A program made the translations under genes and the position numbers. From NCBI GenBank assembly GCA_965209095.1, contig OZ242381.1, positions 3,589,052-3,653,051 of the forward strand: a stretch of DNA of 64,000 nt, in the 5' to 3' direction. The notes below the pieces were generated by a model that was given only the letters and a program-made list of their open reading frames with translations, had not been told where the DNA came from and did not search any database. Source of the stretch: Candidatus Poribacteria bacterium (GTDB lineage Bacteria; Poribacteria; WGA-4E; WGA-3G). Within the stretch, counting starts at the first letter, position 1. Each line of letters starts with the position of its first letter. Shown one piece after another: positions 2 to 58,186 of the stretch.

Positions 2-2047
2 CATGATCCTGATGAGGTAACCCTTATTAACATTGTCGGTGAAATCGCTCCAGATAAGATTACTGAATTGCTTGGCAATTTAAGCAAATTCGGTATGACA
101 GATATTGATCTTGAAGACACGCTGAAGACAGGTGTTGAGCCAAAAGCAGAAAGGGATACCGTTCAAAAAGAGCTTCTCGCTGTCAAAGCAGAAAAACCAC
201 CAAAAATTGACGGTAAACTTGATGACCCATGTTGGAAAACCGCACCTCAAACCGACGGGTTCACGCATGTAGAAACGGAAAAACTTGTCAAAGATCAGAC
301 AATAGTCAAACTCCTTTACACCGACAAAGCGATCTACGTTGCCTGGTACATTTACGATTCTGATCCTAAAACAATCGTAACAGACAAGAAGTTGGATTCT
401 AGCCAGTTCCTTGATGCGGAATCGGTCTGCTTTAGCATAGACCCATTCCATACACATCAATCCAGGCCTCGCATCCGGTTTATGGTCAATCCGTTTGATC
501 AACAAAAATTTGAACGTCTATCATTGGGGAATCAGCAGAAATCTAAAGTGACGAACGATTGGATCGCGATTACGAAAATCGTTGATGATGGATGGGTTGT
601 AGAGATGGAAATTCCTTGGAAGGTGTTAGACTATCCAGATACTTCCGAACCGATTCAGATGGGGATCAACTTCAACAGGAAACAGCAGCGGACAGGTGAG
701 GATTCTTGGTGGTCAAATATAGGTGTTGAGAAGGAATACAAAAACGATGGCAATTGGATACGGGTATTACCACCACGAAAGTCTTCCCGCATGCAAGGAA
801 TGTTAGATGCATTTGAAGAAGGAAAATACAATGCTTCAGGTGTTTTTACACGTGGTAAAGACGGTTCTCCCACAGATAGCGATTTCTTTCGTCTCGTGAA
901 CACCAGCGGCTTAAATCCTATTGATGGGCTTAGACTCGGTGGTGGATTTGAACTCGGCACAGGGTGGAATCCTGATCCGTACTTTTTTGAAAGATCCGGC
1001 GAAACGATTCAACGGAATAGGATTCTAAACACAACATCATTCGGTATTGATGAGAACGAATTCGGTATACGATCAAGCCTATCACCGAAACCTTTCATAT
1101 TCGGTACTATGAGTTATGCACTTCGGACAGAATTCCCTAATTACCGACTTGGTGGTGGTGTCTTATTCGGCGAGAAATCAAGCCTCACTTATAGTGTCCA
1201 AATTCATAGGTTGACATCTGCCAGGGACAGAGATCTCTTATTAAGCGGCAGTGAACAGTTCTTAAGAGCGTTCTTTGATGCAGGTTTTCAAGACTACTAT
1301 ACAAGACAAGGGGGAGTCATGGCATTGCAATGGCAGCATGCATCCTTAAAGCATACGCTTGGACTATCCCTGCTTTTAGAGGAACATGAAAGTATTAGGG
1401 AAGATAGCACCTCTTACTTCAGAATCGGAACTTCAAGCTACCACTTAGGCACAGATCTAAGACCGAATTCTCCCATATACGATGGAAGAATGCATAGCAT
1501 CTCCCTTAAGTACGATTTTGACACCCGTCAGGACACTAAAATCAGCTATAACCTTAGAAACCGAGCGAACAAAAATGAGTGGTATAATACTTTCTTAGTT
1601 GAGCATTCTAATCCTGATTTGGGTTCTACGTATGATTTCACTCGCTTTATAATACATCTTCGCAACTATCACCCAATTGGAGATGATCGGATTGATACAC
1701 GTCTAAAAGTTGGACTTGCATCTACTTCGTATATGCTGCCTTACCAACGTCAATTTGTTCTTGGTGGCACAGGAACACTACGTGGATACTCTCTTTATGA
1801 ATTTGTAGGTAACCACGGATTCCTATTCAATATGGAGTATGCACATAATTTAGCAACTAATATTTACATTGTTCCTTTTGTAGATATAGGACAAACATGG
1901 ATGAATTTGGAAGAGATTAATGATATTTACCCGAAGGTTAATTTGGGTATCGGTTTCCAACTCGGTATCTTCAGATTGAACTTCGCAAGGGCACTTGAGA
2001 GGAGTAGTGAATATCGAGCCAATTTCAAATGGTCCCGCACGTTTTAA
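2..2047 (+). CDS. 5'-truncated multidomain outer-membrane protein: DUF4252-like tail, CBM9/DUF5916-like domain, C-terminal Omp85/BamA-TamA-like beta-barrel
   Basis: Frame is open from base 2 (HDPDEVTLINIVGEIAPDKITELLGNL, like a DUF4252 C-terminus). PPKIDGKLDDPCW...GWVVEMEIPW is the CBM9-like signature. C-terminus has LGGTGTLRGY, amphipathic strands and a terminal F. Confidence 0.65.
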   Translation, partial: HDPDEVTLINIVGEIAPDKITELLGNLSKFGMTDIDLEDTLKTGVEPKAERDTVQKELLAVKAEKPPKIDGKLDDPCWKTAPQTDGFTHVETEKLVKDQTIVKLLYTDKAIYVAWYIYDSDPKTIVTDKKLDSSQFLDAESVCFSIDPFHTHQSRPRIRFMVNPFDQQKFERLSLGNQQKSKVTNDWIAITKIVDDGWVVEMEIPWKVLDYPDTSEPIQMGINFNRKQQRTGEDSWWSNIGVEKEYKNDGNWIRVLPPRKSSRMQGMLDAFEEGKYNASGVFTRGKDGSPTDSDFFRLVNTSGLNPIDGLRLGGGFELGTGWNPDPYFFERSGETIQRNRILNTTSFGIDENEFGIRSSLSPKPFIFGTMSYALRTEFPNYRLGGGVLFGEKSSLTYSVQIHRLTSARDRDLLLSGSEQFLRAFFDAGFQDYYTRQGGVMALQWQHASLKHTLGLSLLLEEHESIREDSTSYFRIGTSSYHLGTDLRPNSPIYDGRMHSISLKYDFDTRQDTKISYNLRNRANKNEWYNTFLVEHSNPDLGSTYDFTRFIIHLRNYHPIGDDRIDTRLKVGLASTSYMLPYQRQFVLGGTGTLRGYSLYEFVGNHGFLFNMEYAHNLATNIYIVPFVDIGQTWMNLEEINDIYPKVNLGIGFQLGIFRLNFARALERSSEYRANFKWSRTF

Positions 2048-2191
2048 ATCAATCTAACAGACCAAACATCGTTTCTAATTATTGAATTGCGCGACTACAA
2101 ACACCGTAAATAAAAGATAAAAGTCATTTCCCATATATATGGGAAATGTTCAATACTATTTCGTCAGAAATCTGAAAAGGAGAATACTGAA

Positions 2192-3511
2192 ATGAAAGCA
2201 ATTTTGACTGTGGCGATGATCCTAAGTTTACCGATGGCTTCTGCAAACGCAGATACACCTGCTGAAAAGCCGAGTGAAGATGTCACCGAGGCGCAGAGCC
2301 AGAAAAACATGGAAATCTGCAAGCAACATTTTCGCGAAATTGGCAAGGCGATTCAGGCATACAAAAAGGAACACGGTGATTTCCCTAAGAGGCTATCAGA
2401 ACTTCACCCGAAATATTTGCCAGATGCAAACCTCTTGCTTTGTCCTGCAGATAAAGAGGGCGGCAAGCCAATCTCTTATTGGAACGCAGACCCGAAAATG
2501 CCTGTGAGTTATGGGTATGAGTTTCTTCCTAAAAACCGAGAGAAGATAAATGAAACCCGTTTTGTGTATGGCGATCACATACCGCTTGTCCGATGTCTAC
2601 ATCACATCAACCCGGATAAAGTCTCTAAAGAAGGTCTGAACTTGAGTTTTTCCTTGAAAATTTACAAGTCAGGTTTTAATTGGAGCGACGAAGATATACA
2701 CGGTAGTCCCGAAGCCGCTATTGCTGCCTTTGAAAACTCGCTTGCGCAATATCCGGATGATCGGCGGTTCTTTGATCTCTACCCGCGGCTTGTCGTACTC
2801 TACACCAAGGTCGGAAACGAAAAATCAGCAGATGCTCTTATTGAACGTTTCAAGTCACCAGGCATGATACCAGACAATAATGGGTACCGCTCAGTATTCG
2901 GGAAACTTAGGCACGTGGGCCTCTATAAGGAGCTGCTTGAGATTTTTAAGGCAGCTGAGCAGCGGCAGCCCGACGAGGGGGTTATCCTCTTTCGCCTTGC
3001 CCACATTTATGAGAAATTAGGCAATGCTGAACTCGCCGAAGTCTACTATCGGAAGTCTGATCCCAAATATGAATTGTGGGGAAAATTGTTGCCCGACTTC
3101 TCTGCGACTGACCTTGATGGCAAACCGATTTCGCTGAAGCAATATCGTGGAAAAGTCGTCTTGCTCGACTTTTGGGGAGTCTGGTGTGGTTTCTGTATTG
3201 ACGAAATGCCCAATCTCAAAAGAGTTTACGCTACCTATAAAGATCAAGGGTTTGACATTATCGGTGTTAGTCTTGACGATGAGGAAGCGGTACTGCGGGA
3301 CTATATTAAAGAGAACAACATCCAGTGGCGGCAGATTTACAGTGGCAAAAGGTCGGAGGAGGATCCACTTGTACAGCAGTTTAAAATTACGAGTGTTCCA
3401 TCACAGTGGCTTATTGACAGGGATGGCAAACTAATCACGCATAAGGCAAGAGGAGAAAAGTTGGAACAACTCGTCATGGAAGCACTCAAGAACAAAACCG
3501 AGAGTAAGTAA
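2192..3511 (+). CDS. Secreted TlpA/AhpC-TSA thioredoxin-family protein with N-terminal pseudopilin-like/DUF1559-like helix and TPR region
   Basis: Signal peptide; CKQHFREIGKAIQAYKKEHGDFP; TPR-like helices; PDFSATDLDGKPISLKQYRGKVVLLDFWGVWCGFC (CxxC). Confidence 0.8.
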   Translation: MKAILTVAMILSLPMASANADTPAEKPSEDVTEAQSQKNMEICKQHFREIGKAIQAYKKEHGDFPKRLSELHPKYLPDANLLLCPADKEGGKPISYWNADPKMPVSYGYEFLPKNREKINETRFVYGDHIPLVRCLHHINPDKVSKEGLNLSFSLKIYKSGFNWSDEDIHGSPEAAIAAFENSLAQYPDDRRFFDLYPRLVVLYTKVGNEKSADALIERFKSPGMIPDNNGYRSVFGKLRHVGLYKELLEIFKAAEQRQPDEGVILFRLAHIYEKLGNAELAEVYYRKSDPKYELWGKLLPDFSATDLDGKPISLKQYRGKVVLLDFWGVWCGFCIDEMPNLKRVYATYKDQGFDIIGVSLDDEEAVLRDYIKENNIQWRQIYSGKRSEEDPLVQQFKITSVPSQWLIDRDGKLITHKARGEKLEQLVMEALKNKTESK

Positions 3512-3538
3512 CCAAATCTATCAAGGATGACGATTAAT

Positions 3539-3565
3539 GTATGCGGGAAATCAATACCCGCATAC
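3539..3565 (+). terminator. Stem-loop after the TlpA gene
   Basis: GTATGCGGG-9nt-CCCGCATAC perfect 9-bp stem just after the stop; weak U-tract. Confidence 0.5.
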
Positions 3566-3599
3566 ATTATAGTGAAATCCAAAAATTGTAACTTTAAGG

Positions 3600-3903
3600 G
3601 GGGGCGTAAAGTTTTTGGCACAGAGATACAAACTTCTGTTTTCTTTAGTCCCGTAGGGACGATATGTTTATAGAAAACGTCATGTACAACCTCTTTAGTC
3701 CCGTAGGGACGATATGTTTATCTTTCTATGCCGTTCCTACGGAACTCAAGAGAGGTGGTCCACATTTTTTCTATAAACATATCGTCCCTACGGGACTGAA
3801 GAACATAATGCAAAAGTTATAGTGTATAAGACAACGCCAAAGTAGGAACAATAAGGCATCCGGCAATATTTACAGATTCTTTTGCCAAAAACTTTACACA
3901 CCC
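3600..3903. mobile_element. MITE, GGGTGTGTAAAGTTTTTGGCA TIR family (IS256/Mutator-like), carrying CCCGTAGGGACGATATGTTTAT REP-like units
   Basis: 21-bp TIRs (left copy slightly degenerate) and a perfect 9-bp TSD ACTTTAAGG at 3591-3599 and 3904-3912; no transposase inside. Confidence 0.85.
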
Positions 3904-3950
3904 ACTTTAAGGTATAAGATTGTAATTTTCCCATACTGAAGGAGAGTCCA

Positions 3951-4478
3951 ATGAAAAAATTGAATCAGTTTTTACCCCTTACCATTTTCACTTTTCTGTT
4001 TATTTTACCTTTTCTTACCGGTTGTGCTGAAACGGAACGTGAAATGATGTTTCCTGATCGTGAACTGCCTGAAAGTGTTACTATTTCAATTGAAGATATA
4101 TCTGAAGGAGCAACATTAAATCTTGCTATTTCCACTGACTACAAAGAACATAGGGACAATTTTGGGAACAAAGTTATTATCCACAATAACGAAGAGAAGT
4201 ACACCGTTACAGAGAATTTCAGTAAGACACTTCCATTAATTGTTCCTGATGAAAGGTCTTTTTCTGTCAAACTTAAATGTACTGCATTTGAATCCGAAAG
4301 CGATGAAGGAACCGACTCGCTTCGTTTGATAATCCAGTTTCATGGTAACGGAAATTTTGATAATGGAAATTACAATCAAGTGCATCCGATTGAACTGGGC
4401 ACATCCATCAACTTACAAAGTGCTTTCAGTCGATATGATGGCACCTCCAAAAGTTGGGAATACTTACCTCCAGATTAG
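3951..4478 (+). CDS. Hypothetical lipoprotein
   Basis: RBS GAAGGAG; lipobox FLTGC; no recognisable domain. Confidence 0.7.
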   Translation: MKKLNQFLPLTIFTFLFILPFLTGCAETEREMMFPDRELPESVTISIEDISEGATLNLAISTDYKEHRDNFGNKVIIHNNEEKYTVTENFSKTLPLIVPDERSFSVKLKCTAFESESDEGTDSLRLIIQFHGNGNFDNGNYNQVHPIELGTSINLQSAFSRYDGTSKSWEYLPPD

Positions 4479-4646
4479 AACTCTTGCGGAGTGCTTTTTC
4501 AACCGATACGAAAGACATCCTTGATATTACAACCACTTTATAGATCTCAGCAGATCTTGCTATAATGTAAACCCTATCCTAATAAAGATAGGGTTTTTGT
4601 CTTGCTCAATATGACCTCATAATATAAATTTCACTAAAATGAAAAA

Positions 4647-4667
4647 AGATGCAACAATTTTGCATCT
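4647..4667. promoter_or_regulatory. Palindrome upstream of the ECF sigma gene, overlapping a candidate ECF promoter (GCAAC-17-GTAGTA)
   Basis: AGATGCAA-CAATT-TTGCATCT perfect 8-bp inverted repeat; the promoter assignment is inference. Confidence 0.4.
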
Positions 4668-4707
4668 CGTTTGTAGTAGCGTTAACTCAAATCGCACGGA
4701 GTTACAA

Positions 4708-5244
4708 ATGACAGAAGATAAATTCCTTGAACTCATCCGAAAACATCAAGATAAAATATATCGTCATGCTTTTTATCTACTGAAAAACAGTGAAGATGCG
4801 AAAGACATGGCACAAGAAACATTTATAAAAGCATGGCAACATCGCGCTAAACTCAGAGAGGACACAGCGCACTCATGGATGCTGAAATGTGTTCAAAATT
4901 TCTGTTTCAATCAACTCAAACGCCGTAAGTTTCAGGTGCATTTAGATGAGGAAGAAGATGAAACGCTTGAGATACTACTGCATTCTTATTCATATCAGTC
5001 AAACCCAACCCCGGATGAAATTGCTATCAGACAAGAACTTAAGCTGTTTGTGAGACAAGCGATTGAAGAATTACCACCAGCCATGCGATCAACAGTCGTC
5101 ATGCGAGAATTTGAGGAAATGAGTTACAAGGAAATCGCGAAGGAATTGAAACAACCTGAAAACAGTGTTAAATCAATGTTATTCCGTGCTCGTAAACAAT
5201 TACGTGAGATATTAGATCGCTTATTAGAGGAGACAGAAGTATGA
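4708..5244 (+). CDS. ECF (sigma-70 group 4) RNA polymerase sigma factor
   Basis: Region 2 AKDMAQETFIKAW...SWM; region 4.2 MSYKEIAKEL...SVKSMLFRARKQL; start moved to the ATG after CGGAG. Confidence 0.92.
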   Translation: MTEDKFLELIRKHQDKIYRHAFYLLKNSEDAKDMAQETFIKAWQHRAKLREDTAHSWMLKCVQNFCFNQLKRRKFQVHLDEEEDETLEILLHSYSYQSNPTPDEIAIRQELKLFVRQAIEELPPAMRSTVVMREFEEMSYKEIAKELKQPENSVKSMLFRARKQLREILDRLLEETEV

Positions 5245-6047
5245 AACCGACAATCATGATACTCGGCAGCGGACATTTAGCAAATCCCGGTAAGGATACA
5301 TTCAATGTAAGAATGGATGATGTGCTTGCTCCAAAACGACAAAAGGAAATCAAACTGCTGGTTTCACAACTTAAAGAATTTCGCCCTACCAAAATTGCAC
5401 TTCAAGCAGACAAAAGATATGATTCAGAGGTCAATACAGACTATCAAAAGTATCTGGAAGACGTTTACCAACTCAAACAGTGGGAACATGATCAGATCGG
5501 CTTTCGGTTGGCGAAGCAGATGGGGCATCCGAAAGTATATTGTGTTGATTTTTGCCCTGAGCATGATCCGTTTTTCCCAGAAGACCTTGACCCAAATTTG
5601 TTAGACATAGACAAATACGCCACAGAAAACAACCAAGAACATCTTCTTCCTAAAATAGAGGATTTTGATATTCCAGAAGGAAAAATCCACCAAGAAGAAG
5701 ATGGAAGAGTCTGGATTGAACCTAAAAAGTATGAATCAATCATTGACATGTATATACGGTATAATCAACCTGAAGGCAGGTTCGCTGATCATCAGTCATA
5801 CTTGCGGATGTCCAAAGTCGGCATAGGCAACCAATATCCTGGAGCGAATTGGGTTGGGAATCACTGGTACCCACGAAATCTCAAAGTCTTTGTCAACCTG
5901 ACGCGAATTACAGAATCTGCTGAGGATAGGATATTAGTGATTATCGGGGCAGGACTTGTCTATCTGATTCAGCAGTTTATTGAGGACTGTGGGGATTACA
6001 TCATTGAAAGTCCCCTAAAATATATAAAATCGGAGGAAGTTAATTAA
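5241..6047 (+). CDS. DUF5694-family protein (TraB/Tiki/ChaN-like fold), probably catalytically degenerate
   Basis: TIMILGSGH, QIGFRLAKQMGH and WYPRNL motifs; ALQ and GAGL where the paralogue has ALE and GGGH. Confidence 0.75.
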   Translation: MKPTIMILGSGHLANPGKDTFNVRMDDVLAPKRQKEIKLLVSQLKEFRPTKIALQADKRYDSEVNTDYQKYLEDVYQLKQWEHDQIGFRLAKQMGHPKVYCVDFCPEHDPFFPEDLDPNLLDIDKYATENNQEHLLPKIEDFDIPEGKIHQEEDGRVWIEPKKYESIIDMYIRYNQPEGRFADHQSYLRMSKVGIGNQYPGANWVGNHWYPRNLKVFVNLTRITESAEDRILVIIGAGLVYLIQQFIEDCGDYIIESPLKYIKSEEVN

Positions 6048-6859
6048 TGAAACATAAAACGAAACCAACAATCATGATTCTTGGCAGCGGACACTTTGCT
6101 AATCCTGGATTTGACGCATACAATTACAGAATGGACGATGTGCTTAGTCCTAAACGTCAAAGCGAGATAAAACAACTGGTTGAGTTACTCAAACCGTTTC
6201 GGCCCACCAAGGTGGCACTTGAAATAGACGAAAGGTTTGACGTTGAAACTCAAACGGATTATCAAGGTTATCTCAACGGCACTTATGAACTCAAACGGGG
6301 TGAAGGGGACCAGATCGGTTTTCGGTTAGCAAAACAGATGGGACATCCGAAGGTATACTGTGTTGATTATTTCCCTGAGAAAGACCCGTTTTTTCCAGAA
6401 GATTTTGACTCAAATTTATTGGATATTGATAAGTTTGCTAATGAACATAATCAAGAACACCTTCTACCCAATGTAGAAGACTTCTTTACTGGTGAAAACG
6501 TGGAATTCCAGGAAGAGGAAGACGGTAGAGTCTGGATTGAACCTAAGGAATACGAATTGATTATCGACATGTTCATACGGGGCAATGAACCTGAAGGAAG
6601 AAGTGCCGAACATCGGCTATACTTACAGATGGCACAAGTTGGATTAGGAAAACAGTATCCTGGAGCGAATTGGGTTGGCCATCAATGGTATACTCGCAAT
6701 CTCAAAGTCTTTGTCAATCTAACACGCATTACTGAATCTACTGATGATCGTATCCTCTTGATTATCGGTGGTGGACATGTCTATTTGGTGCAACACTTTC
6801 TTGAGGCTTCAGGCAATTATATTGTAGAAAATCCACTAAAGTATCTGAAACCGAAATGA
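6047..6859 (+). CDS. DUF5694-family protein, tandem paralogue with intact motifs
   Basis: Collinear with the upstream gene; GSGH, VALE, WYTRN and GGGH present; TAATG overlap. Confidence 0.78.
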   Translation: MKHKTKPTIMILGSGHFANPGFDAYNYRMDDVLSPKRQSEIKQLVELLKPFRPTKVALEIDERFDVETQTDYQGYLNGTYELKRGEGDQIGFRLAKQMGHPKVYCVDYFPEKDPFFPEDFDSNLLDIDKFANEHNQEHLLPNVEDFFTGENVEFQEEEDGRVWIEPKEYELIIDMFIRGNEPEGRSAEHRLYLQMAQVGLGKQYPGANWVGHQWYTRNLKVFVNLTRITESTDDRILLIIGGGHVYLVQHFLEASGNYIVENPLKYLKPK

Positions 6860-10361: not shown

Positions 10362-11081
10362 ATGTATCGTGATTTTTTTACCAGTAGGTGGGTTATTGGC
10401 GGATTTGCTTTCCTGATAGTGTTTGGTGTAGGGTGTGTGTTGTGGTATCAATATGATATTGCCCCCTACAAACGGGATGCTGTTGAGACTGCAAATTTAA
10501 CTCATCAATGGCAAAATAGTAAATTGGAAACTCATGATAACGAGATAACCAAGAAATCACTGAAGAATAATATTTCATCTGCAGAGAAATCAGGCACTGA
10601 AACAGACGGTGGAATCTTAGGGGGAATGAACACTAAAGTGAATCCATCAAACATGTCAGATATAACGCATCAAATGGAAAGTAGCGAACTTATACTTGTT
10701 TCGCCCCATGGATTCGGACCGTTTCCAGATGTGCCTGACGATTACATTATACAACCGTTTTCATGGGACTTTTACAAGAATGACCCACCAATTTATGAAT
10801 TAATGGAGCGCGTTCGGATGAAATTGTGGAAGCAAGGGATACGTGCTACAGGTATGCTGCATGCGAATGGATTAGTATACCCAACGATTCCCGGGACCGT
10901 CTTCGTAAAAAAATATAACCGTGATGGAGACGATTTTATTGAAATTCGGGGTTCTCCAAAAGACAATTTAGAATCTATTACAAAATCTTTATTGGATGGT
11001 GTTGTTCCCAGTGGTATTCAGTTACGTGATATGGATGAGGCTGGAATTGATCCCTATAAATTTTTGAACTTAACTAAATAA
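10362..11081 (+). CDS. Hypothetical protein with N-terminal membrane anchor
   Basis: AAGGAGGT RBS; one TM helix; SPHGFGPFPDVPDDY motif. Confidence 0.75.
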   Translation: MYRDFFTSRWVIGGFAFLIVFGVGCVLWYQYDIAPYKRDAVETANLTHQWQNSKLETHDNEITKKSLKNNISSAEKSGTETDGGILGGMNTKVNPSNMSDITHQMESSELILVSPHGFGPFPDVPDDYIIQPFSWDFYKNDPPIYELMERVRMKLWKQGIRATGMLHANGLVYPTIPGTVFVKKYNRDGDDFIEIRGSPKDNLESITKSLLDGVVPSGIQLRDMDEAGIDPYKFLNLTK

Positions 11082-11322
11082 TGATGCCATCGAACCAGCC
11101 AACATTACTTAAATCTTCAACGCCATCATGGTAAATCGTTTTCTGTGTTACATAAGCGATTGAAGTATCGTTAGTGTGCGCAAACAACTGTCTGGCAGAT
11201 TCTTTGCCAACAAGTTTACCTTCCAACCACATCTCAAACTTATCATTTTCAACTTTTTCAGCAGTATCGCGTAGGACTAAGGCGACATGATGCCAGCGAT
11301 CTGATACCGTCTCTATAAATGT
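11074..11322 (-). pseudogene. LamG/concanavalin-A-like domain fragment
   Basis: Not in the ORF track. Reads RWHHVALVLRD...FEMWLEGKLVG...WFDGII*; an in-frame stop lies just upstream and there is no start codon before the domain. Confidence 0.7.
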
Positions 11323-11492
11323 TTATCCCCATTAACATTTGTTAAGAATGTGTTGAATATTGCACAAACTGGAAAGTTTATGCTACGTTAAAAGGGGCAT
11401 TAGTTATTAGAAATACGACTTGTGCCAGTTAACAATGTGTTTATTTTGTGTTCACATGTATTTGATTTAACATATAAACATATCGTCCCTAC

Positions 11493-11550
11493 CAAATCAA
11501 CGCCAAATGCGCTTGGACGAATACGCGTTTGGTATTCGTCATGATTTGTC
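11493..11550. mobile_element. 58-bp YAAATCAACG-headed insertion splitting a REP
   Basis: Removing it restores AAACATATCGTCCCTAC|GGGACT, seen intact at 3775-3796. Confidence 0.7.
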
Positions 11551-11629
11551 GGGACTAAAGAGGGTTCAAACAAAAAGAAATACGGTCAAAACCACTGTTT
11601 GTGTGAATTTATGTTTAACTATTAGTTAT

Positions 11630-11758
11630 TTAGCACAACTCGTTAGAAATGGTATAGTTATCTCGCAAATCCTGGTTCGGACAAGTGGCACAAACTTTAC
11701 ACACCCATTTCGCGTAACATTTGACAGTGAATTCTCTGTGTTTGTCTTGAAGTTTCAT
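11630..11758 (-). pseudogene. Truncated small gene with a DUF2280-like N-terminus, interrupted by a MITE TIR
   Basis: AGGAGG RBS then MKLQDKHREFTVKCYAK; from codon 18 the sequence is a GGGTGTGTAAAG TIR (11686-11706). Family assignment is from recalled similarity only. Confidence 0.45.
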
Positions 11759-11774
11759 TGTAATCTTCCTCCTA

Positions 11775-11816
11775 AAAATCGTACTATATGGTACGATTTT
11801 TCGTACTATAGTACGA
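11775..11816. promoter_or_regulatory. Tandem GTAC palindromes next to the RBS (operator- or arm-site-like)
   Basis: AAAATCGTAC-6-GTACGATTTT and the perfect 16-mer TCGTACTATAGTACGA. Confidence 0.55.
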
Positions 11817-12195
11817 TTTTTCAAATTGCTCTAAACATAGTGTACATAAGGGTTTGTAAGGATAATCTCTAAAATCGAAAAAATTTAAAATAGTACAGTT
11901 TCTATTTTTCGGTTTTTGTCGTGTGAAGTCTGTTTCCTGTTTCAGGCAATTGCCCAATATTTTACTTATGGATACTTGAATGTTGATAAAGGTTAAAATA
12001 GATGTAATAAAAATGCACTTGGTGAATGTGTCCAAGACATTTTCATTGACACTTATTGTTATTGAAATGTCGTTTTTTAGTCCTGGTATTTTATTTATTG
12101 AAAAGGGCCTGTATCGGATAATCGCTGTGCATTGTCCATCGGGATTTGTGTGCATATTTTTTGACCTTTAGAAAAATAAATATGATGTAAAAAAT

Positions 12196-12225
12196 ATTAT
12201 AACATAAATAAATTGTTGATGTCAA
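12196..12225 (-). promoter_or_regulatory. Consensus sigma70 promoter
   Basis: Minus strand TTGACA-18-TATAAT with extended -10 TG. Confidence 0.65.
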
Positions 12226-12348
12226 GTTAATTATTACAATTATTTGATAATTTTTGTGTTTTTTTGTAAAAAGGGAATATTTCCTTGTCCTTTGCGTTTT
12301 TTTTTTCGCTAAGTTTTCATTACTCCAAACAGATATGATTTCTTGAAT

Positions 12349-12805
12349 AACCCAAGTTGCCACTTAAACAATATAACCTCCCGCTAAGATCGTTCAGAAT
12401 TTTGGCACATACCGCTCCGCTGGAGCGGAAGAATGAAACGATGTGCGTGCTATAGACATATCGCTCCGCTGGAGCGAAAGATTGGACATCACGCGTAGAA
12501 AGGGTGAAGCCGTGCAATAGGTGGCAACTTGGGTTTGAATATTATCTTTCTTGACAAAAGCGGAAGAATGAAACGATGTGCGTGCTATAGACATATCGCT
12601 CCGCTGGAGCGAAAGATTGGACATCACGCGTAGAAAGGGTGAAGTCGTGCAATAGGTGGCAACTTGGGTTTGAATATTATCTTTCTTGACAAAAGCGGAA
12701 GAATGAAACGATGTGCGTGCTATAGACATATCGCTCCGCTGGAGCGAAAGATTGGACATCACGCGTAGAAAGGGTGAAGTCGTGCAATAGGTGGCAACTT
12801 GGGTT
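12349..12805. mobile_element. 187-bp MITE (TIR AACCCAAGTTGCYAC, 5-bp TSD TGAAT) whose right part plus flank is tandemly repeated as three 135-bp units
   Basis: TIRs at 12349 and ending 12535; units start at 12431, 12566 and 12701; a single-copy relative lies at 53430-53615. Confidence 0.85.
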
Positions 12806-12812
12806 TGAATAT

Positions 12813-13156
12813 GGGTGTGTAAAGTTTTTGGCAAAGGTTATCTCACATTCAGACACATCGTAGGGGCGAGGGGACCTCGCCCTATAAGCGTCAATTTAGG
12901 GATATATCTTCTTGTGGGAGGGGTTTCTAACCCCGATAAACATTTTAAATTCGGACAAAATCGGGGTTAGAAACCCCTCCCACAAGAGAAAATTCAGCAA
13001 CTTTTTCTTAAATTGACGCTTATGGGGCGAGGTCCCCTCGCCCTCGTTGGAACACAGCCTATCCATCAGCAGGGGTTGGGATGGAAATGTGGCAGGGGTG
13101 GTAATCGGGCGGGGAGACCCCGCCCCTACGTGTAGTGCCAAAAACTTTACACACCC
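12813..13156. mobile_element. GGGTGTGTAAAG-TIR MITE with REP cargo and a nested 142-bp MITE
   Basis: Perfect 21-bp TIRs; flanks TTGAATAT and ATGAATAT (7/8 match); backbone matches the reverse complement of 30960-31144. Confidence 0.85.
12883..13024. mobile_element. 142-bp MITE (TIR CATAAGCGTCAATTTAAG)
   Basis: Near-identical copy of the same length at 37308-37449; both sit beside a GTAGGGGCGAGG REP. Confidence 0.8.
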
Positions 13157-13172
13157 ATGAATATTATCTTCC

Positions 13173-13201
13173 TTGACAAAATACGATATATCCATTATAC
13201 T
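13173..13201 (+). promoter_or_regulatory. sigma70 promoter of the helicase operon
   Basis: TTGACA-17-TATACT about 30 nt before the start codon. Confidence 0.75.
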
Positions 13202-13232
13202 AAATATTGAATTTAATGTTTAGAGGGGATTG

Positions 13233-33422: not shown

Positions 33423-33549
33423 TGTCTGAACCAGGATTTTCAGGATAAGAAACTGAAAAATCAAAGTGCTATTCTTGGGATAAAGTTCAAACTTTAGATA
33501 GGAACTTTGGATTAGCAAACTCCTAATCCTGAAAATCCTGGTTCAGACA
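33423..33549. mobile_element. MITE-like element with TGTCTGAACCAGGATTTTCAGGA TIRs
   Basis: 23-bp IRs; relative at 57764-57884; half copies near 6942 and 11668. Confidence 0.7.
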
Positions 33550-54036: not shown

Positions 54037-56370
54037 CTAAGGTTTTGTCATTCTTGCCCACTTGCACCGATCTACCCAAACTTGTGCCTCATGCGCATCT
54101 CCTAATGAAAGTGACTTATCTGCAGCAATATCAGAAAATATCCTTTCTGCTATTGCATAGTCATTCTTACGATAAGCATTCACACCTAACATCCTCAGTG
54201 TAGTTATACGAATCTTATGTGGCATTTTATCTGTATCCTTTACGTCCCCTAAATTTCTCGCATGATGTAGGTATTGTGAGCTGAGTTCCCATTCACTTTC
54301 CTGATGCAGTAATTCCCCTGCTGAATAATAGGTCAACCAACTATGCGGTTCAGTATTTATAATCCGTAATAGTAGAGACATTTTAGATCCGTTATAAGTG
54401 CGACCAAGACTATCATTACGAATAAGTACCCTTCGCAACCAATTTTTGGATTCAGGTGAAAAACTTGAGGATAGTGCTGCAATGCGTAACATCAACCTTT
54501 GTTCAATTGATGCGCGTATCGCAAACTTAGAAGCATCATTATATCTCGTCAAGGCTTCTTCAGTATCCCCTTGAAGCCAATAGATATCTCCAAGCAACTG
54601 TGCTGCTTCTGCTCTGAAGTGTGAATTCTTGTCAGAAATGATTCGCTTTGCTATTGAAATTGTAGATTGAAAATTGCCAGTATGATAAGTGCTATACATT
54701 AATCCTCGTGCGTTTCTCGTATTCTCAGGTTCATAAGATAACAATTTTTGGAATGATTCAACAGCAGTTGTATAATCTTGACGATAATATGCAGTCCAAG
54801 CGTCATTTCGTAATGATGCCATTTCGTGCGCGCACACTTGTTCAAAGATTCCGCCACGTTTTAGTCGTTGTGTAGCATATGTTAATTCATCTTCTCTTAG
54901 TAGCACTTCATTTTTTAGATATAAACGCCATTCTCCCTCCAAACCACGTAGATCCTTTCCGTAGATTTTTGACAAATTTCCAATTGGAAATGCCTGTTTA
55001 CACTTTTCGATTCCGTATTTATCAATCAGGAAACGGACATAAGAACCTGCCATCAAGTAACTGCGTGATCCGGCATGTTTCCAGAAGCCGAGACTCATCA
55101 CACTTGAGAGTGGTGGCGCGACATTTAATTCTTGCATAGCCTTTGCCCATTGATGGACGGTTAATTTATCTTCCTCCCAATCCGCAGCGACAGCGACTCC
55201 TTCATGCATCCCAACATTTAGACTAACTTTCCAAGGTGACCAATCAGCAGTCAGGACATGTGCAAGTTCATGTTTTAGGACTGGATGGGGGAAACCCAGT
55301 GAATGAACATGAAAGCCGTAGCCAAAAGGGTCTTCAACGAATGTATCTCCAGCACCTATCAGTCGTTTTTTCTGTTCAGGTGAAGCATATAAGTATACAC
55401 GAACCTTACGCGAACTTTCTGTTTGCAAATACTCTGACAACTGATCATAACGGAATTCACAGTCGTCTGCAAATAAGTCAATTTCGTTTTCAAGTTCTCT
55501 GGCATAGTATAACTCAAAGTGCTCAGTTTCCTTATACCCCCCTAAAGTTTCAGCAATGTCTTGACGGGAGGGACGAATTCCTAACTTTCCAGAATAGAGT
55601 TCAATGCCTATTATTGCTAGGACCATCAAAGGGACAGCAGTGACACGCAGAAGTGAGAATTGTGAAGATGATTTGATAAGTCTACGCCATCTCATTTTGG
55701 GGATCAGGGCAGTTGTTCTATTTACTTCGCATGTAAAAACTGGAATAGTCATAAAGACTAATCCCCATAATATAGTCTCTGTCCGTGAAATCAGTAGTGT
55801 CGGTGTGATTGAGATTACGAAATCATAAATCGGACCCGGAAAATAACCGAGTATTGGGTGAAATGCAAATACTGGTGGATGAAAAATAAGGTTTGTAATT
55901 GTTGGAACACACGACACAATTAGGAAAATCAGATATACTAAGTAAGCGAGCCAACGTCTTCGTATCCATAAATTGAAAAATATGCCTGCAGCAGTTACTG
56001 TAAAACAACTGAAGGTTGGCAATATTAAGTAGAAAAGAAATCCCTCTATGAGATTGCAATTTTTGATGCGGAGTGTGTTTGCCAGAATAATAATCAGTGG
56101 GATCAATAGTAGTATGCCGTTTGATATAAGTGCCCGATAGAGACATCTCAGGATTACGTTGTGTGATGATCCAGCGAGTTTATCCGGGTCCTTTTTCATC
56201 ACATGGAATTCGGTCATTGCTACATGAGCCCCAGCGAATGCGATGAAAAGCGTAATTACAGCACAAAACTCAAAGGCAAGGAGATTAAATAGAGGTACTG
56301 TGGCAAGCACCAATGACAAAACACCGATTGTTAAAATCCACAACCCATAAGAAAATGTTCTGTATATCAT
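54037..56370 (-). CDS. Polytopic membrane protein with gluzincin-like HExxH domain and TPR repeats
   Basis: About 7 TM helices, then VLKHELAHVL...MHEGVAV and C-terminal TPRs. Confidence 0.75.
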   Translation of the reverse strand: MIYRTFSYGLWILTIGVLSLVLATVPLFNLLAFEFCAVITLFIAFAGAHVAMTEFHVMKKDPDKLAGSSHNVILRCLYRALISNGILLLIPLIIILANTLRIKNCNLIEGFLFYLILPTFSCFTVTAAGIFFNLWIRRRWLAYLVYLIFLIVSCVPTITNLIFHPPVFAFHPILGYFPGPIYDFVISITPTLLISRTETILWGLVFMTIPVFTCEVNRTTALIPKMRWRRLIKSSSQFSLLRVTAVPLMVLAIIGIELYSGKLGIRPSRQDIAETLGGYKETEHFELYYARELENEIDLFADDCEFRYDQLSEYLQTESSRKVRVYLYASPEQKKRLIGAGDTFVEDPFGYGFHVHSLGFPHPVLKHELAHVLTADWSPWKVSLNVGMHEGVAVAADWEEDKLTVHQWAKAMQELNVAPPLSSVMSLGFWKHAGSRSYLMAGSYVRFLIDKYGIEKCKQAFPIGNLSKIYGKDLRGLEGEWRLYLKNEVLLREDELTYATQRLKRGGIFEQVCAHEMASLRNDAWTAYYRQDYTTAVESFQKLLSYEPENTRNARGLMYSTYHTGNFQSTISIAKRIISDKNSHFRAEAAQLLGDIYWLQGDTEEALTRYNDASKFAIRASIEQRLMLRIAALSSSFSPESKNWLRRVLIRNDSLGRTYNGSKMSLLLRIINTEPHSWLTYYSAGELLHQESEWELSSQYLHHARNLGDVKDTDKMPHKIRITTLRMLGVNAYRKNDYAIAERIFSDIAADKSLSLGDAHEAQVWVDRCKWARMTKP

Positions 56371-56515
56371 AGGAATTTTAGGTGGTTATTGCCCCATTGA
56401 TGTAAGGACTGTGTATATTGTGATATTGATGATTACTACGGATCAAATCAACTTATGTTAGAATTAACAATTCTATATGAATCATCATAAGTCTGTCAAT
56501 TGAAATTCAAATCTG

Positions 56516-56552
56516 GGGTGTGTAAAGTTTTTGGCACTAACTTTACATACCC
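56516..56552. mobile_element. 37-bp minimal member of the GGGTGTGTAAAG family
   Basis: GGGTGTGTAAAGTT...AACTTTACATACCC with perfect 9-bp TSD TCAAATCTG. Confidence 0.85.
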
Positions 56553-57489
56553 TCAAATCTGTCCAAAACAAATGACACGATTTATAATTGTTAATCCGAT
56601 ATAGTATAGACTTTGTTTATTTCTCATAAATTCATTGATTCTTTGTGTCTTTGAAATCGTACCGTATTGTGCGTTTTTTCGGATTACGGTACGGTTTTGG
56701 TGCGGTTTTTCGTACCGGGTTGTGAGTCCAGTCTGTGTATGGGTTTGTGATTGATTTTTTGTGCGAATTTCTGGCAAATTCAATTTTTTAAAACGGTACG
56801 TTTTGTGATTTAAGTTTTTGGTGTTTTGAAATGTATTATTCATAGTATAGGTAGATAGCATCACAACCAATGTGATGAACGTATCATTTATAGAGTCAGT
56901 TTGTGTAGTTCTTTTTACGTATTGTGTTAACATTGCATTTCACCTACGGGATTTGATTTTATGCGATAAGAACTGCAACTGGGCAGCAAAAAGTGGACAA
57001 AACGTGGAATGCAAAACCCAAATTGGCTTGACAAGTTCCAGTTTTACAGACTGGTATTTTCGCAACAAAGGCATGGATTGACCAATTGCTGAGATGCTGC
57101 GTTTTCTCAGAAACTTCCATGACTCTATGAGATTTTAGATGACATATTCGTACGGGTATGTCCGTAATATCACATGGATCCTGTTGTAATTGTATTTTAA
57201 ACCCCCATTCAAAAGAAATTACAATTGGGATTTTAATGTTAATCAGTTTATGACGAGACTGATTTGCATTTATGTGAAAGTTTTTTGGACATTAGATTAG
57301 GTTCCGTTGCTGTCATCAGTCAACGGTGGACCTCCCGCGACTTCGTGAGAATTTTTGCGATGTTTTTCGTGTTATTTTTACCATTCTATAGATAATTATC
57401 TCATTTAGGATTGCAATTCTTCGGGACACAAACTATGAAGTTTGTGCTACAAAAATGATCTATTATATATTAGAAATAGTATTATTGCG

Positions 57490-57660
57490 TCTCTGTTGGT
57501 TTCGCGCTCCGAAGAGACTGCCCACGACTTTTTGTCAAGTTTTCGAGCGACAGTTTCGGTTGTAAATTTGCGTTCCCGTGTTGTCGCTTCTTCAGGGAAC
57601 TGCGCCGCCTCTTAGAGTTTCTAAACTTGCGTAGCCGATTTGGGCTTGCATTCTAAACAC
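57490..57660 (-). ncRNA. Candidate structured ncRNA or leader, unassigned family
   Basis: Directly downstream of a perfect promoter; hand-folds into a long interrupted rod plus a 3' hairpin; no family match recognised. Confidence 0.45.
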
Positions 57661-57666
57661 GTGTTA

Positions 57667-57695
57667 ATTATACCATTCTTAATTGTGGTTGTCAA
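57667..57695 (-). promoter_or_regulatory. Perfect consensus sigma70 promoter
   Basis: Minus strand TTGACA-17-TATAAT with extended -10 TG and AT-rich upstream DNA. Confidence 0.8.
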
Positions 57696-57763
57696 GTAAA
57701 AATGTAATAATTATGATATTTTTTTGTGAATTTGTTGAAAATTGTTGATTTTTTGATTTAATT

Positions 57764-57884
57764 TGTCTGAATTAGGATTTTTCTCATCAAGTCCTATTTC
57801 AAAAGACGACACCAAACCTGCATCAAAAAACCTGGATATGGTAATCCTTGTAATCTATAAATCCTGAAAATTCTGGTTCAGACA
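57764..57884. mobile_element. TGTCTGAACCAGG-type MITE-like element
   Basis: Imperfect TIRs homologous to 33423-33549. Confidence 0.6.
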
Positions 57885-57911
57885 AGTGAAAATAACTGGA
57901 CACACAATTTA

Positions 57912-57932
57912 TGCCAAAAACTTTACACACCC
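57912..57932. repeat. Solo TIR of the GGGTGTGTAAAG family
   Basis: Exact TGCCAAAAACTTTACACACCC; no partner found. Confidence 0.7.
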
Positions 57933-58186
57933 CTTAACCTTTAAAATCGGGGGTTGTGAATCCCTTCAACAAGAGGAAATCTTCTTAAGTTGACACTTAC
58001 GAGTTCAATCAAGAATAACTAAACTTTAAAGCCTGAATTGCGTCAAAATTCATAATACATTAGACCAAAATATATCACTGAGAATTGTTCTGAACTTTAA
58101 ATTGATTATTGTCAAATAGAAAAGACTACATACTTATAATACCAATCTTCAGCAGGAATAGTTTATGTCGTTTTAAGGAGATGCTA

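Follow-up and report, generated by a model that had tools for sequence, protein, structure and literature searches.

A Self-promoted RNA Module Carried by MITE-like Repeats, a Candidate Non-coding RNA Family of Candidatus Poribacteria

We analyzed a gene-free gap in a 64-kb stretch of a chromosome of Candidatus Poribacteria, a group of sponge symbionts (contig OZ242381.1; this whole stretch is called the window, and its positions serve as coordinates throughout). The gap is a nest of small, defective transposon repeats resembling MITEs (miniature transposable elements with inverted repeats), and it contains one dispersed copy of a promoter-bearing module instead of a unique gene. We lean, with somewhat better than even confidence, toward the reading that this module specifies a self-promoted non-coding RNA (ncRNA), which is dispersed in Poribacteria and carried as cargo in transposase-less, MITE-like units bounded by terminal inverted repeats (TIRs). 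The module is probably a new, mobile-element-borne ncRNA family restricted to Poribacteria. An earlier reading of the letters alone (the sequence-only reading) had proposed a candidate novel ncRNA at this site. A conserved promoter, non-coding character, and the lack of a known family speak for that proposal; the locus is, however, a dispersed repeat module and not a unique small RNA gene, and the TIR-bounded elements that enclose this multicopy DNA had been overlooked.

Results

A Consensus Promoter in a Gene-free Gap

The gap lies between the gene for a 777-amino acid TPR/peptidase-MA protein (minus strand, start at 56370) and a TolC-like outer-membrane efflux gene (plus strand), which is followed by a HlyD-type gene. 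Only short open reading frames (ORFs) are listed for it, none of them long or of protein character, and six-frame translations of the whole 1.4-kb TIR-bounded unit inside it gave no Pfam match and no decayed transposase. The earlier claim that more than 1 kb holds no credible protein gene is thus borne out. The same is true for its minus-strand TTGACA-17-TATAAT promoter: the site at 57695-57667 matches the consensus at 12 of 12 positions, and carries a TG extended -10 in addition; the gap has 10 promoter-like sites, of which no other reaches 12/12. Transcription is predicted to start at ~57660-57662. The coordinates of the promoter, of the transcript domains, and of the surrounding repeats are collected in Table 1.

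Table 1. Features of the gene-free gap and of the RNA module (window positions)
Feature	Coordinates	Strand	Remarks
Gene-free gap	56371-58108		1.74 kb, between flanking genes
Right TIR of the 1.4-kb unit	57912-57933	minus	GGGGTGTGTAAAGTTTTTGGCA; MITE-like family
Nested mini-MITE, second family	57765-57883	not applicable	119 bp; TIR GTCTGAAYYAGRATTTT; between unit TIR and RNA module
Upstream part of module	57696-57755	minus	A/T-rich (UP-like)
sigma-70 promoter	57667-57695	minus	-35 TTGACA 57695-57690; 17-nt spacer; TG 57675-57674; -10 TATAAT 57672-57667
Conserved 5' domain of transcript	57490-57662	minus	
Variable insert	57372-57489	minus	repetitive extragenic palindrome (REP)-like palindrome 57426-57447; absent or replaced in other copies
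Block M3	57336-57371	minus	AUCGC..AAAUUCUCACGAAGUCGCGGG; recognizable in L003
Optional middle domain	57117-57335	minus	219 nt; hairpins 57335-57297, 57264-57241, 57225-57181, 57162-57141
Conserved 3' block	56981-57116	minus	present in L001, L002, L003
GTAC-rich repeat module	56553-56979	minus	downstream of RNA module; highest-copy piece, X1 depth 3000-6200
Left TIR of the 1.4-kb unit	56515-56552	plus	doubles as 38-bp TIR-TIR mini-element flanked by 8-bp direct repeat TCAAATCT
Probable native promoter of the 777-amino acid TPR/peptidase gene	56470-56499	minus	TTGACA-18-TAGAAT, 11/12

The Module Recurs in Other Poribacteria

In a collection of species-representative genomes, the sole bearer of a conserved 22-mer is the Candidatus Poribacteria chromosome OY282386.1. 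Two 1.4-kb units (L001 and L002) are found there at unrelated loci, bounded by the same TIR as the unit in the window and 96% identical to each other. Window positions 57781-56980 (minus strand) are 81% identical to the L001/L002 units, and the homology between window and L001 ends at 56980. A degenerate hairpin pattern located a shorter, diverged core copy (L003) on the Poribacteria-type metagenome contig LXNI01008793.1, to which a covariance model made from the window, L001, and L002 (R1) assigns a score of 63 bits (E = 6e-14). L003 retains the 5' domain, M3, and the 3' block; it is devoid of the 118-nt variable insert and of the 219-nt middle domain, the latter being represented in L003, at exactly the same point, by 2 nt within the loop of a hairpin. 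The module comprises the promoter and ~680 nt downstream in the window (57755-56981) and a core of ~350 nt in L003, and is thus much longer than the ~140 nt for which the sequence-only reading gave pairings. Our comparisons span three independent lineages only: the window, OY282386.1 (L001 and L002), and L003.

The four loci all differ in their neighbors, which include TPR/peptidase, TolC-like, ArsA, HslV/U-like, E1 dehydrogenase, HepT, DUF6785, PhyH, and sulfatase genes, the last two adjoining L003. No TIR is present within 4 kb of L003. Among metagenomes of the Joint Genome Institute (JGI), an exact 20-mer search returned no further copy and the degenerate hairpin pattern one (L003). Viral contigs gave no copies, or chance matches that failed the covariance model, plasmids and phages showed no similarity to the module, and a search with an antisense pseudo-ORF added no further copy.

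At L003, positions 3992-3640 (minus strand), upstream of the RNA copy, are occupied by the 3' portion of a transposase gene of the rve/IS3 type, which has in-frame stops (HSDQGVQY...PWENGYAE*...RPHSALGYLTP). It ends ~40-60 nt before the RNA copy, with a promoter-like site TTGAGC-17-TATAAC in its last codons, and by inserting here it may have displaced the promoter that belonged to the RNA module. A link of the window to this transposase type was rejected, as the GGTAT..TTAACAC match scores below the shuffle mean.

Probable Sequence Constraint on Promoter and Transcript

The conservation between window and L001 is mosaic. The -35 hexamer is identical and the -10 hexamer 83% identical (5 of 6 positions; this holds for L001 and L002, in which the spacing is also kept), while the promoter spacer has dropped to 24%. 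The upstream part of the module is 77% identical. Within the transcribed region, the 5' domain (92%), M3 (94%), the 3' arm (92%), and four hairpins (88-97%) stand between a variable insert at 54% and inter-hairpin linkers at 44-62%, and identity beyond 56980 is 28%. Insertions and deletions between the two copies are not multiples of three. Hexamers and spacing are thus kept around a randomized spacer, and domains are conserved between diverged linkers, a pattern that argues for selection on the promoter and on a folded transcript and that is unlike the neutral decay of a recent repeat. It is reasonably probable, in our estimate, that the RNA is under selection as an RNA.

The 5' domain contains an invariant hairpin GUUCCCUG...CACGGGAAC (57600-57572; GTTCCC/GGGAAC) enclosed by helix 57608-57604/57560-57556, and an alternative or pseudoknot helix can form between 57588-57582 and 57552-57546 (GCGACA 57587-57582/TGTCGC 57552-57547). 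Its outer helices are GCCCA 57645-57641/TGGGC 57524-57520, CGGCT 57637-57633/AGTCG 57529-57525, and CAAGTTT 57629-57623/AAACTTG 57542-57536. A hairpin GTCTCT 57518-57513/AGAGAC 57494-57489 follows, the conserved loop of which contains CGCGAAACCAAC. Farther downstream, UUCUCA of M3 can pair with UGAGAA 57110-57105, and the 3' block holds the hairpins CUGAGA/UCUCAG (57110-57089) and CCAGU...ACUGG (57054-57038) before it ends in a U-rich tract and the conserved UUGCUGCCC at 56989-56981. The pairings drawn by hand in the sequence-only reading are all present at their coordinates, as are the hairpin at 57299-57335 and the REP-like palindrome.

A long-range helix can connect the two end regions of the predicted transcript: its 5' end (57662-57624) is complementary to 57039-57002, with ~32 bp, including G.U pairs, over 44 nt. 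This helix is kept in L001, where the window's single C.A mismatch is a C-G pair, and in L003 GCCCA/UGGGU is replaced by GUCUA/UAGAC. We considered that the arms might be the TIRs of a further nested MITE. Homology between lineages runs on outside both arms, however, into the promoter upstream and into the U-rich tract and UUGCUGCCC downstream, and the arms are therefore internal features and not transposon ends.

We counted paired positions over a structure of 54 pairs, composed of RNAalifold helices, GCGACA/UGUCGC as a pseudoknot, and the GUCUCU/AGAGAC hairpin. The alignment comprises only the three lineages, and as the covariance model had adjusted it to the structure, pairing is inflated. 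In it, 90.7% of cells pair, and both sides have changed with pairing kept in 11 of the 54 pairs, compared with 3.2 +/- 1.5 after shuffling (none of 500 shuffles reaches 11) and 0-3 in slid controls. At 57607/57557 and 57602/57571, the C-G pairs of the window are replaced by U-A in L001-type copies; the changed partners co-occur within the same contigs of the RNA runs. Position 57556, an A in the window and there part of a G.A mismatch, is a C in most other copies and allows for a G-C pair. In L003, the pseudoknot shows the exchanges A-U to G-C and C-G to U-A. The hairpins of the middle domain vary only in their loops, without covariation.

RNA Contigs Mostly Coincide with the Predicted Transcript

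Evidence for transcription comes from contigs assembled from six RNA libraries (X23-X28). In five of these (X24-X28), and apart from one contig of X25, contigs that match the module are confined to 56910-57660. Their 5' limits are 57660 (X24), 57649 (X26), 57628 (X27), and 57542 (X25 and X28), and depth over the promoter and upstream part (57691-57832) is zero. Depth is likewise zero over the GTAC-rich module at 56555-56767, with traces only up to 56909, and in X25-X28 the zero-depth region extends over 56342-56767. In X1, a public DNA run from a sponge or coral holobiont that carries the window strain, the depth of 57691-57832 and of the GTAC-rich module is equal to or greater than that of the RNA module. 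DNA contamination of the RNA libraries is thus unlikely, as neighboring repeats of equal or higher copy number have no RNA depth. It is likely that the RNA module is transcribed.

Contigs of these and other runs differ in the variable insert. Joints from 57371/57376 to 57482 that skip the variable insert are found in X1, X5, X23, X24, X25, and X26, and X27 and X28 carry 63 different letters in its place.

A Nest of MITE-like Repeats Surrounds the Module

The 1.4-kb unit (1419 bp) is bounded by a perfect inverted repeat (56515-56536 and 57912-57933; 22 of 22 positions complementary). The family TIR GGGTGTGTAAAGTTTTTGGCA occurs in 9 copies in the window, compared with 0 expected, and forms inward-facing pairs at 3599/3904, 12812/13157, and 30959/31145. 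Sibling elements are flanked by ~8-bp direct repeats (ACTTTAAG at 3599/3904, TGAATAT at 12812/13157, and TCAAATCT around 56515-56552). The 1.4-kb unit's own flanks are unlike each other (CAAATCT and TTAACCT) and contain no matching target duplication. The unit shares its TIR with this multicopy family and with the L001 and L002 units, as expected for a MITE; it has no transposase, exceeds the usual size of MITEs, and is put together from four or more repeat families. A second mini-MITE family with the TIR GTCTGAACCAGGATTTT has 7 copies in the window (0.3 expected), one of which is nested between the unit's TIR and the RNA module.

The copy number of the nest was apparent from X1, in which flanking genes have depths of 67-78 and the unit interior reaches 500-6200, contributed by a large number of short contigs with identities of 85-99%. 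The RNA module, at 500-2900 (56981-57690), exceeds the flanking genes in depth by a factor of ~10-40. The upstream boundary of the repeat is at ~57744-57755, where many contigs have loose ends.

The GTAC-rich module downstream contains an annotated 126-amino acid ORF (56933-56553, minus strand) with no Pfam match. At least nine paralogues are present on the window's own 5.44-Mb chromosome, with the same Met start, 65-99% protein identity, and variable C termini, and one high-depth copy carries a 1-nt deletion. This is probably a pseudo-ORF, although its frame is conserved. L001's analogous GTAC-rich module stands without the RNA module at 6 of 7 other loci recovered via its pseudo-ORF, a relative of the window's own GTAC-rich module stands alone in L011, and the RNA module is absent from all eight loci harvested via the GTAC pseudo-ORFs (L004-L011). 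GTAC-rich modules thus occur without the RNA module, which is therefore a separable cargo and no fixed part of one transposon. L011, a TARA metagenome scaffold, has a different sequence with TTGACA-17-TAGAAT (276-305) ahead of its GTAC-rich relative, and strong promoters seem to recur beside GTAC-rich repeats.

The parent transposase of the GGGTGTGTAAAGTTTTTGGCA family was not found. At the edge of locus L010, there is a match to an IS1595-family domain (PF12762), and an IS630-type transposase gene adjoins the repeat of this locus. Given the ~8-bp duplications and the PF12762 match, an IS1595-like family is a candidate parent of the GGGTGTGTAAAGTTTTTGGCA-ended elements.

Related repeats are found elsewhere in the window. 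A further GGGTGTGTAAAGTTTTTGGCA TIR copy is located at 11686-11707, and the interiors of the elements are very unlike one another and range from 38 bp to 1.4 kb. Second-family elements of ~120 bp occupy sites at 33424-33548, 57765-57883, 6943, and 11666. A degenerate family TIR (TGTGAAAGTTTTTTGGACAT; 57268-57292) lies within the RNA module, in a linker unlike that of L001, and may be what a former insertion left behind. Another gap without genes, 2.1 kb in length (11081-13230), consists of the same kinds of repeats, among them the TIR copy at 11686, a GTAC tandem repeat (11779-11822), and palindromic units in common with 3620-3800. Within it, 2.9 copies of a 135-bp unit follow each other with 99% identity (12424-12812), each repeat ending in TGAATATTATCTTTCTTGACAAAA. 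The same TGAATATTATCTTTCTTGACAAAA precedes the promoter of the gene at 13230; a promoter-proximal segment has been tandemly duplicated there and is interrupted by the MITE at 12812-13157.

No Match to Known RNA Families

The sequence-only reading recognized no RNA family, and indeed Rfam 15 returned no match at gathering score in the whole window. At E <= 10, three chance-level matches fall into the gap, all with E >= 3, and nothing consistent appears in L001-L003; none of the Rfam 15 models, which include HEARO, group I and II introns, 6S RNA, tmRNA, RNase P, OLE, GOLLD, and ROOL, accounts for the module. ARAGORN detected no tRNA or tmRNA. The four copies are not accompanied by TnpB, IscB, IsrB, or a DEDD recombinase, as would be expected for an omega-RNA or bridge RNA, and the decayed rve-type gene at L003 is the sole transposase in their vicinity. 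The ends of the transcript can pair as in the msr-msd RNA of a retron, but neither the ORF list nor the six-frame Pfam search places a reverse transcriptase or other ORF downstream. A hammerhead ribozyme was considered for L003, in which a hairpin loop has CUGAUGAG; the window and L001 have CUGAAGA instead, and as the GAAA element is also lacking, this candidate was rejected. Between the RNA and the TIRs or neighboring 5' untranslated regions, no complementarity exceeds 9 nt.

Discussion

Our data are consistent with an RNA that is made from its own promoter, conserved in its domains, and moved around Poribacteria genomes with defective transposons. Several observations weigh against this reading. 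The RNA contigs are unstranded, those of X23 also cover the promoter, one X25 contig runs ~1 kb past 56999 and hence past the proposed 3' end, and no intrinsic terminator was detected on the minus strand of the gap. RNA coverage in five of the six libraries is found only downstream of the predicted start, and the strand and 3' end of the transcript are putative. The compensatory changes derive from the few lineages and the structure-fitted alignment described above, and a sequence-based placement of L003 shifts them from helix 57637-33/57529-25 to 57645-41/57524-20. The paralogues L001 and L002 are equally conserved in their non-transcribed upstream part, and this pair is thus uninformative on RNA selection. 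The 5' part of the fold has no exceptional stability: the first ~176 nt of the region that the sequence-only reading had called highly structured have a minimum free energy (MFE) of -43.4 kcal/mol, compared with -41.4 +/- 4.2 kcal/mol for dinucleotide shuffles (z = -0.46). Across the three lineages, z for the 5' domain is -0.5 to -1.4, and for the L003 core it is ~0. The whole ~690 nt are unusually stable (z = -4.1 to -5.3), yet this signal is equal on both strands (e.g. -4.1 versus -4.4 for the opposite strand) and stems mainly from palindromic inserts, which are absent in L003. Finally, the function that we propose below is wholly inferred.

Much of this would be expected if the module were selfish junk, that is a decaying, MITE-like nest in which one repeat happens to bear a strong outward promoter, transcription is incidental, and hairpins reflect palindromes that matter at the DNA level, as transposase sites or REP-like inserts, and not RNA structure. 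We regard this as the most serious alternative, with perhaps a minority chance of being correct. The nest comprises several repeat families that have TIRs and target-site duplications, modules recombine freely and GTAC-rich ones are found without the RNA module, the 5' domain and L003 core have no MFE signal, stability is the same on both strands, and the middle-domain hairpins differ only in their loops. A decaying repeat, however, does not readily account for linkers and a promoter spacer near saturation, while hexamers, 5' domain, and hairpins have mostly remained 88-100% identical (the -10 hexamer being at 83%). It accounts equally poorly for compensatory changes above controls, for a core that persists in the far more diverged L003 with no TIR nearby, and for a long-range inverted repeat that is internal to the conserved unit and hence not a transposon TIR.

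Alternatively, the module could serve as a mobile promoter and leader, delivering strong transcription and a long 5' leader to whichever gene lies downstream, here the 777-amino acid TPR/peptidase gene. Promoter-bearing repeats that alter the expression of their neighbors are known, for example the Correia elements (PMC2649163); a same-strand gene follows the module in the window and in L001 (an ArsA-like ATPase, start at 2888), and the long X25 contig would fit read-through. We nevertheless consider this improbable. The 777-amino acid gene lies at a distance of 1.3 kb, and with a probable native promoter at 56499-56470 (11/12) it would have no need of the module's promoter; RNA depth in X25-X28 falls to zero between the module and this gene (56342-56767); L002 and L003 have no same-strand gene downstream; and delivery alone does not require 680 nt of conserved transcript.

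Slightly less probable still is an RNA that guides or assists an enzyme of mobile elements whose gene lies elsewhere in the genome, such as an orphan omega-RNA or HEARO, a bridge or seek RNA, or a retron-like ncRNA. The module does resemble such RNAs in being multicopy, element-associated, structured, self-promoted, and possibly pseudoknotted, its 5' and 3' ends pair like the a1/a2 repeats of retron RNAs, its internal segment 57372-57489 varies between copies, and a decayed rve-type transposase gene ends just upstream of L003. No TnpB, IscB, DEDD recombinase, or reverse transcriptase adjoins any copy, however, HEARO and group II models are without a match even at E <= 10, the 5' end of the transcript is conserved and thus not guide-like, and the sequence upstream of the module in the window does not significantly resemble the transposase remnant at L003. 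A small protein gene is very improbable, either for the 19-codon ORF 57651-57592 (MQAQIGYASLETLRGGAVP), in which three of four differences between window and L001 are synonymous but these three C-to-U changes are equally explained by the pair changes 57607/57557 and 57602/57571, and which has no Shine-Dalgarno sequence, is broken in many copies by a stop at 57612 or a deletion of 57614, and has no equivalent in the differing frame of L003, or for the 126-amino acid ORF, which annotators called and which keeps its start codon in its paralogues but which lies outside the module and has the variable C termini, the deletion, and the lack of a Pfam match described above.

Under the reading that the module specifies an ncRNA, constitutive transcription would begin near G57660, and a ~175-nt 5' domain would fold around the invariant GUUCCCUG/CACGGGAAC hairpin. 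This hairpin could either be enclosed by helix 57608-04/57560-56 or be engaged through its loop (57588-82) in a pseudoknot with 57552-46. The two arrangements would be sterically exclusive, and the RNA might thus switch between conformations. Its initial ~40 nt might pair with 57039-57002 to form a clamp of ~32 bp, followed by the U-rich tract. Such a clamp could delimit and protect a stable RNA of ~660 nt or present a site for RNase III, with optional hairpin domains inserted in loops and linkers; we propose this clamp or processing role tentatively, as rather less likely than not to be correct. As no protein partner is encoded beside any copy, we propose a structured, protein-binding RNA that would act in trans and could be tied to the biology of its carrier repeats; it might, for example, sequester a transposase or a factor of the host, or support its action. 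An element-related function in trans is unlikely on present evidence, if conceivable. More speculative, and doubtful, is the idea that the module belongs to a new, Poribacteria-specific class of pseudoknotted, element-borne RNAs of large size (350-700 nt) that would work with a protein encoded elsewhere, as guide, scaffold, or ribozyme-like cofactor in transposition or defense. The situation would be comparable to that of HEARO at a time when the role of IsrB was not yet clear, and the programmable or switching part would be the variable segment 57372-57489 or the two helices that exclude each other.

The module may be compared with several known systems. Precursors of rRNA contain a long-range processing stem that is cut by RNase III. 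Like these, the module has a strong promoter and a 5' leader that can form a duplex of ~32 bp over 44 nt with a 3' segment far downstream, around a structured RNA; unlike these, it has no similarity to rRNA or another stable RNA, and the processing parallel is an analogy. HEARO and omega-RNAs of IS200/IS605 elements (with IsrB, IscB, and TnpB) and the bridge RNAs of IS110 elements are structured, often pseudoknotted, multicopy, and borne on mobile DNA, and protein-less orphans exist. In contrast to these RNAs, the module has no adjacent protein, no Rfam HEARO match, and no terminal, guide-like variable segment, and its carrier family has both TIRs and target-site duplications, neither of which is found in IS200/605 and IS110 elements. 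The TIR-bounded, transposase-less 1.4-kb unit with two 96%-identical copies at different loci of OY282386.1 recalls mobile insertion cassettes, but its passenger is an ncRNA and not a protein gene, it has no matching target duplication, and it is a mosaic of repeat families.

Closest in habit are the Correia elements of Neisseria and the transcribed MITEs BOX, ERIC, and RUP, which, like the module, are multicopy and intergenic, have inverted repeats, and can carry promoters. Correia elements are described (PMC2649163; review, PMC10969869) as non-autonomous, multicopy intergenic repeats with inverted repeats that can carry functional promoters, that give rise to transcripts with helices to which RNase III binds or which it cuts, and that affect neighboring genes. 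Correia elements are ~100-155 bp long with promoters arising at their ends, whereas the module combines a full consensus promoter with a conserved transcript of ~350-680 nt that is organized in domains. It is also separable from TIRs, as seen in L003, and sibling elements have ~8-bp target duplications.

The repeat nest accounts for kilobase-long "gene-free" gaps and annotated pseudo-ORFs in such genomes, and the locus would still be a clear case of nested MITEs with a consensus promoter if the transcript were junk. Multicopy, element-borne RNAs have repeatedly proved functional, with HEARO/omega and bridge RNAs leading to RNA-guided enzymes and Correia elements to regulators. Complete Poribacteria chromosomes are now available, from which a new family could be defined. 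If real, the module would represent a long, self-promoted, constrained RNA, outside the curated RNA families, that spreads as the cargo of defective transposons in an uncultivated phylum of sponge symbionts.

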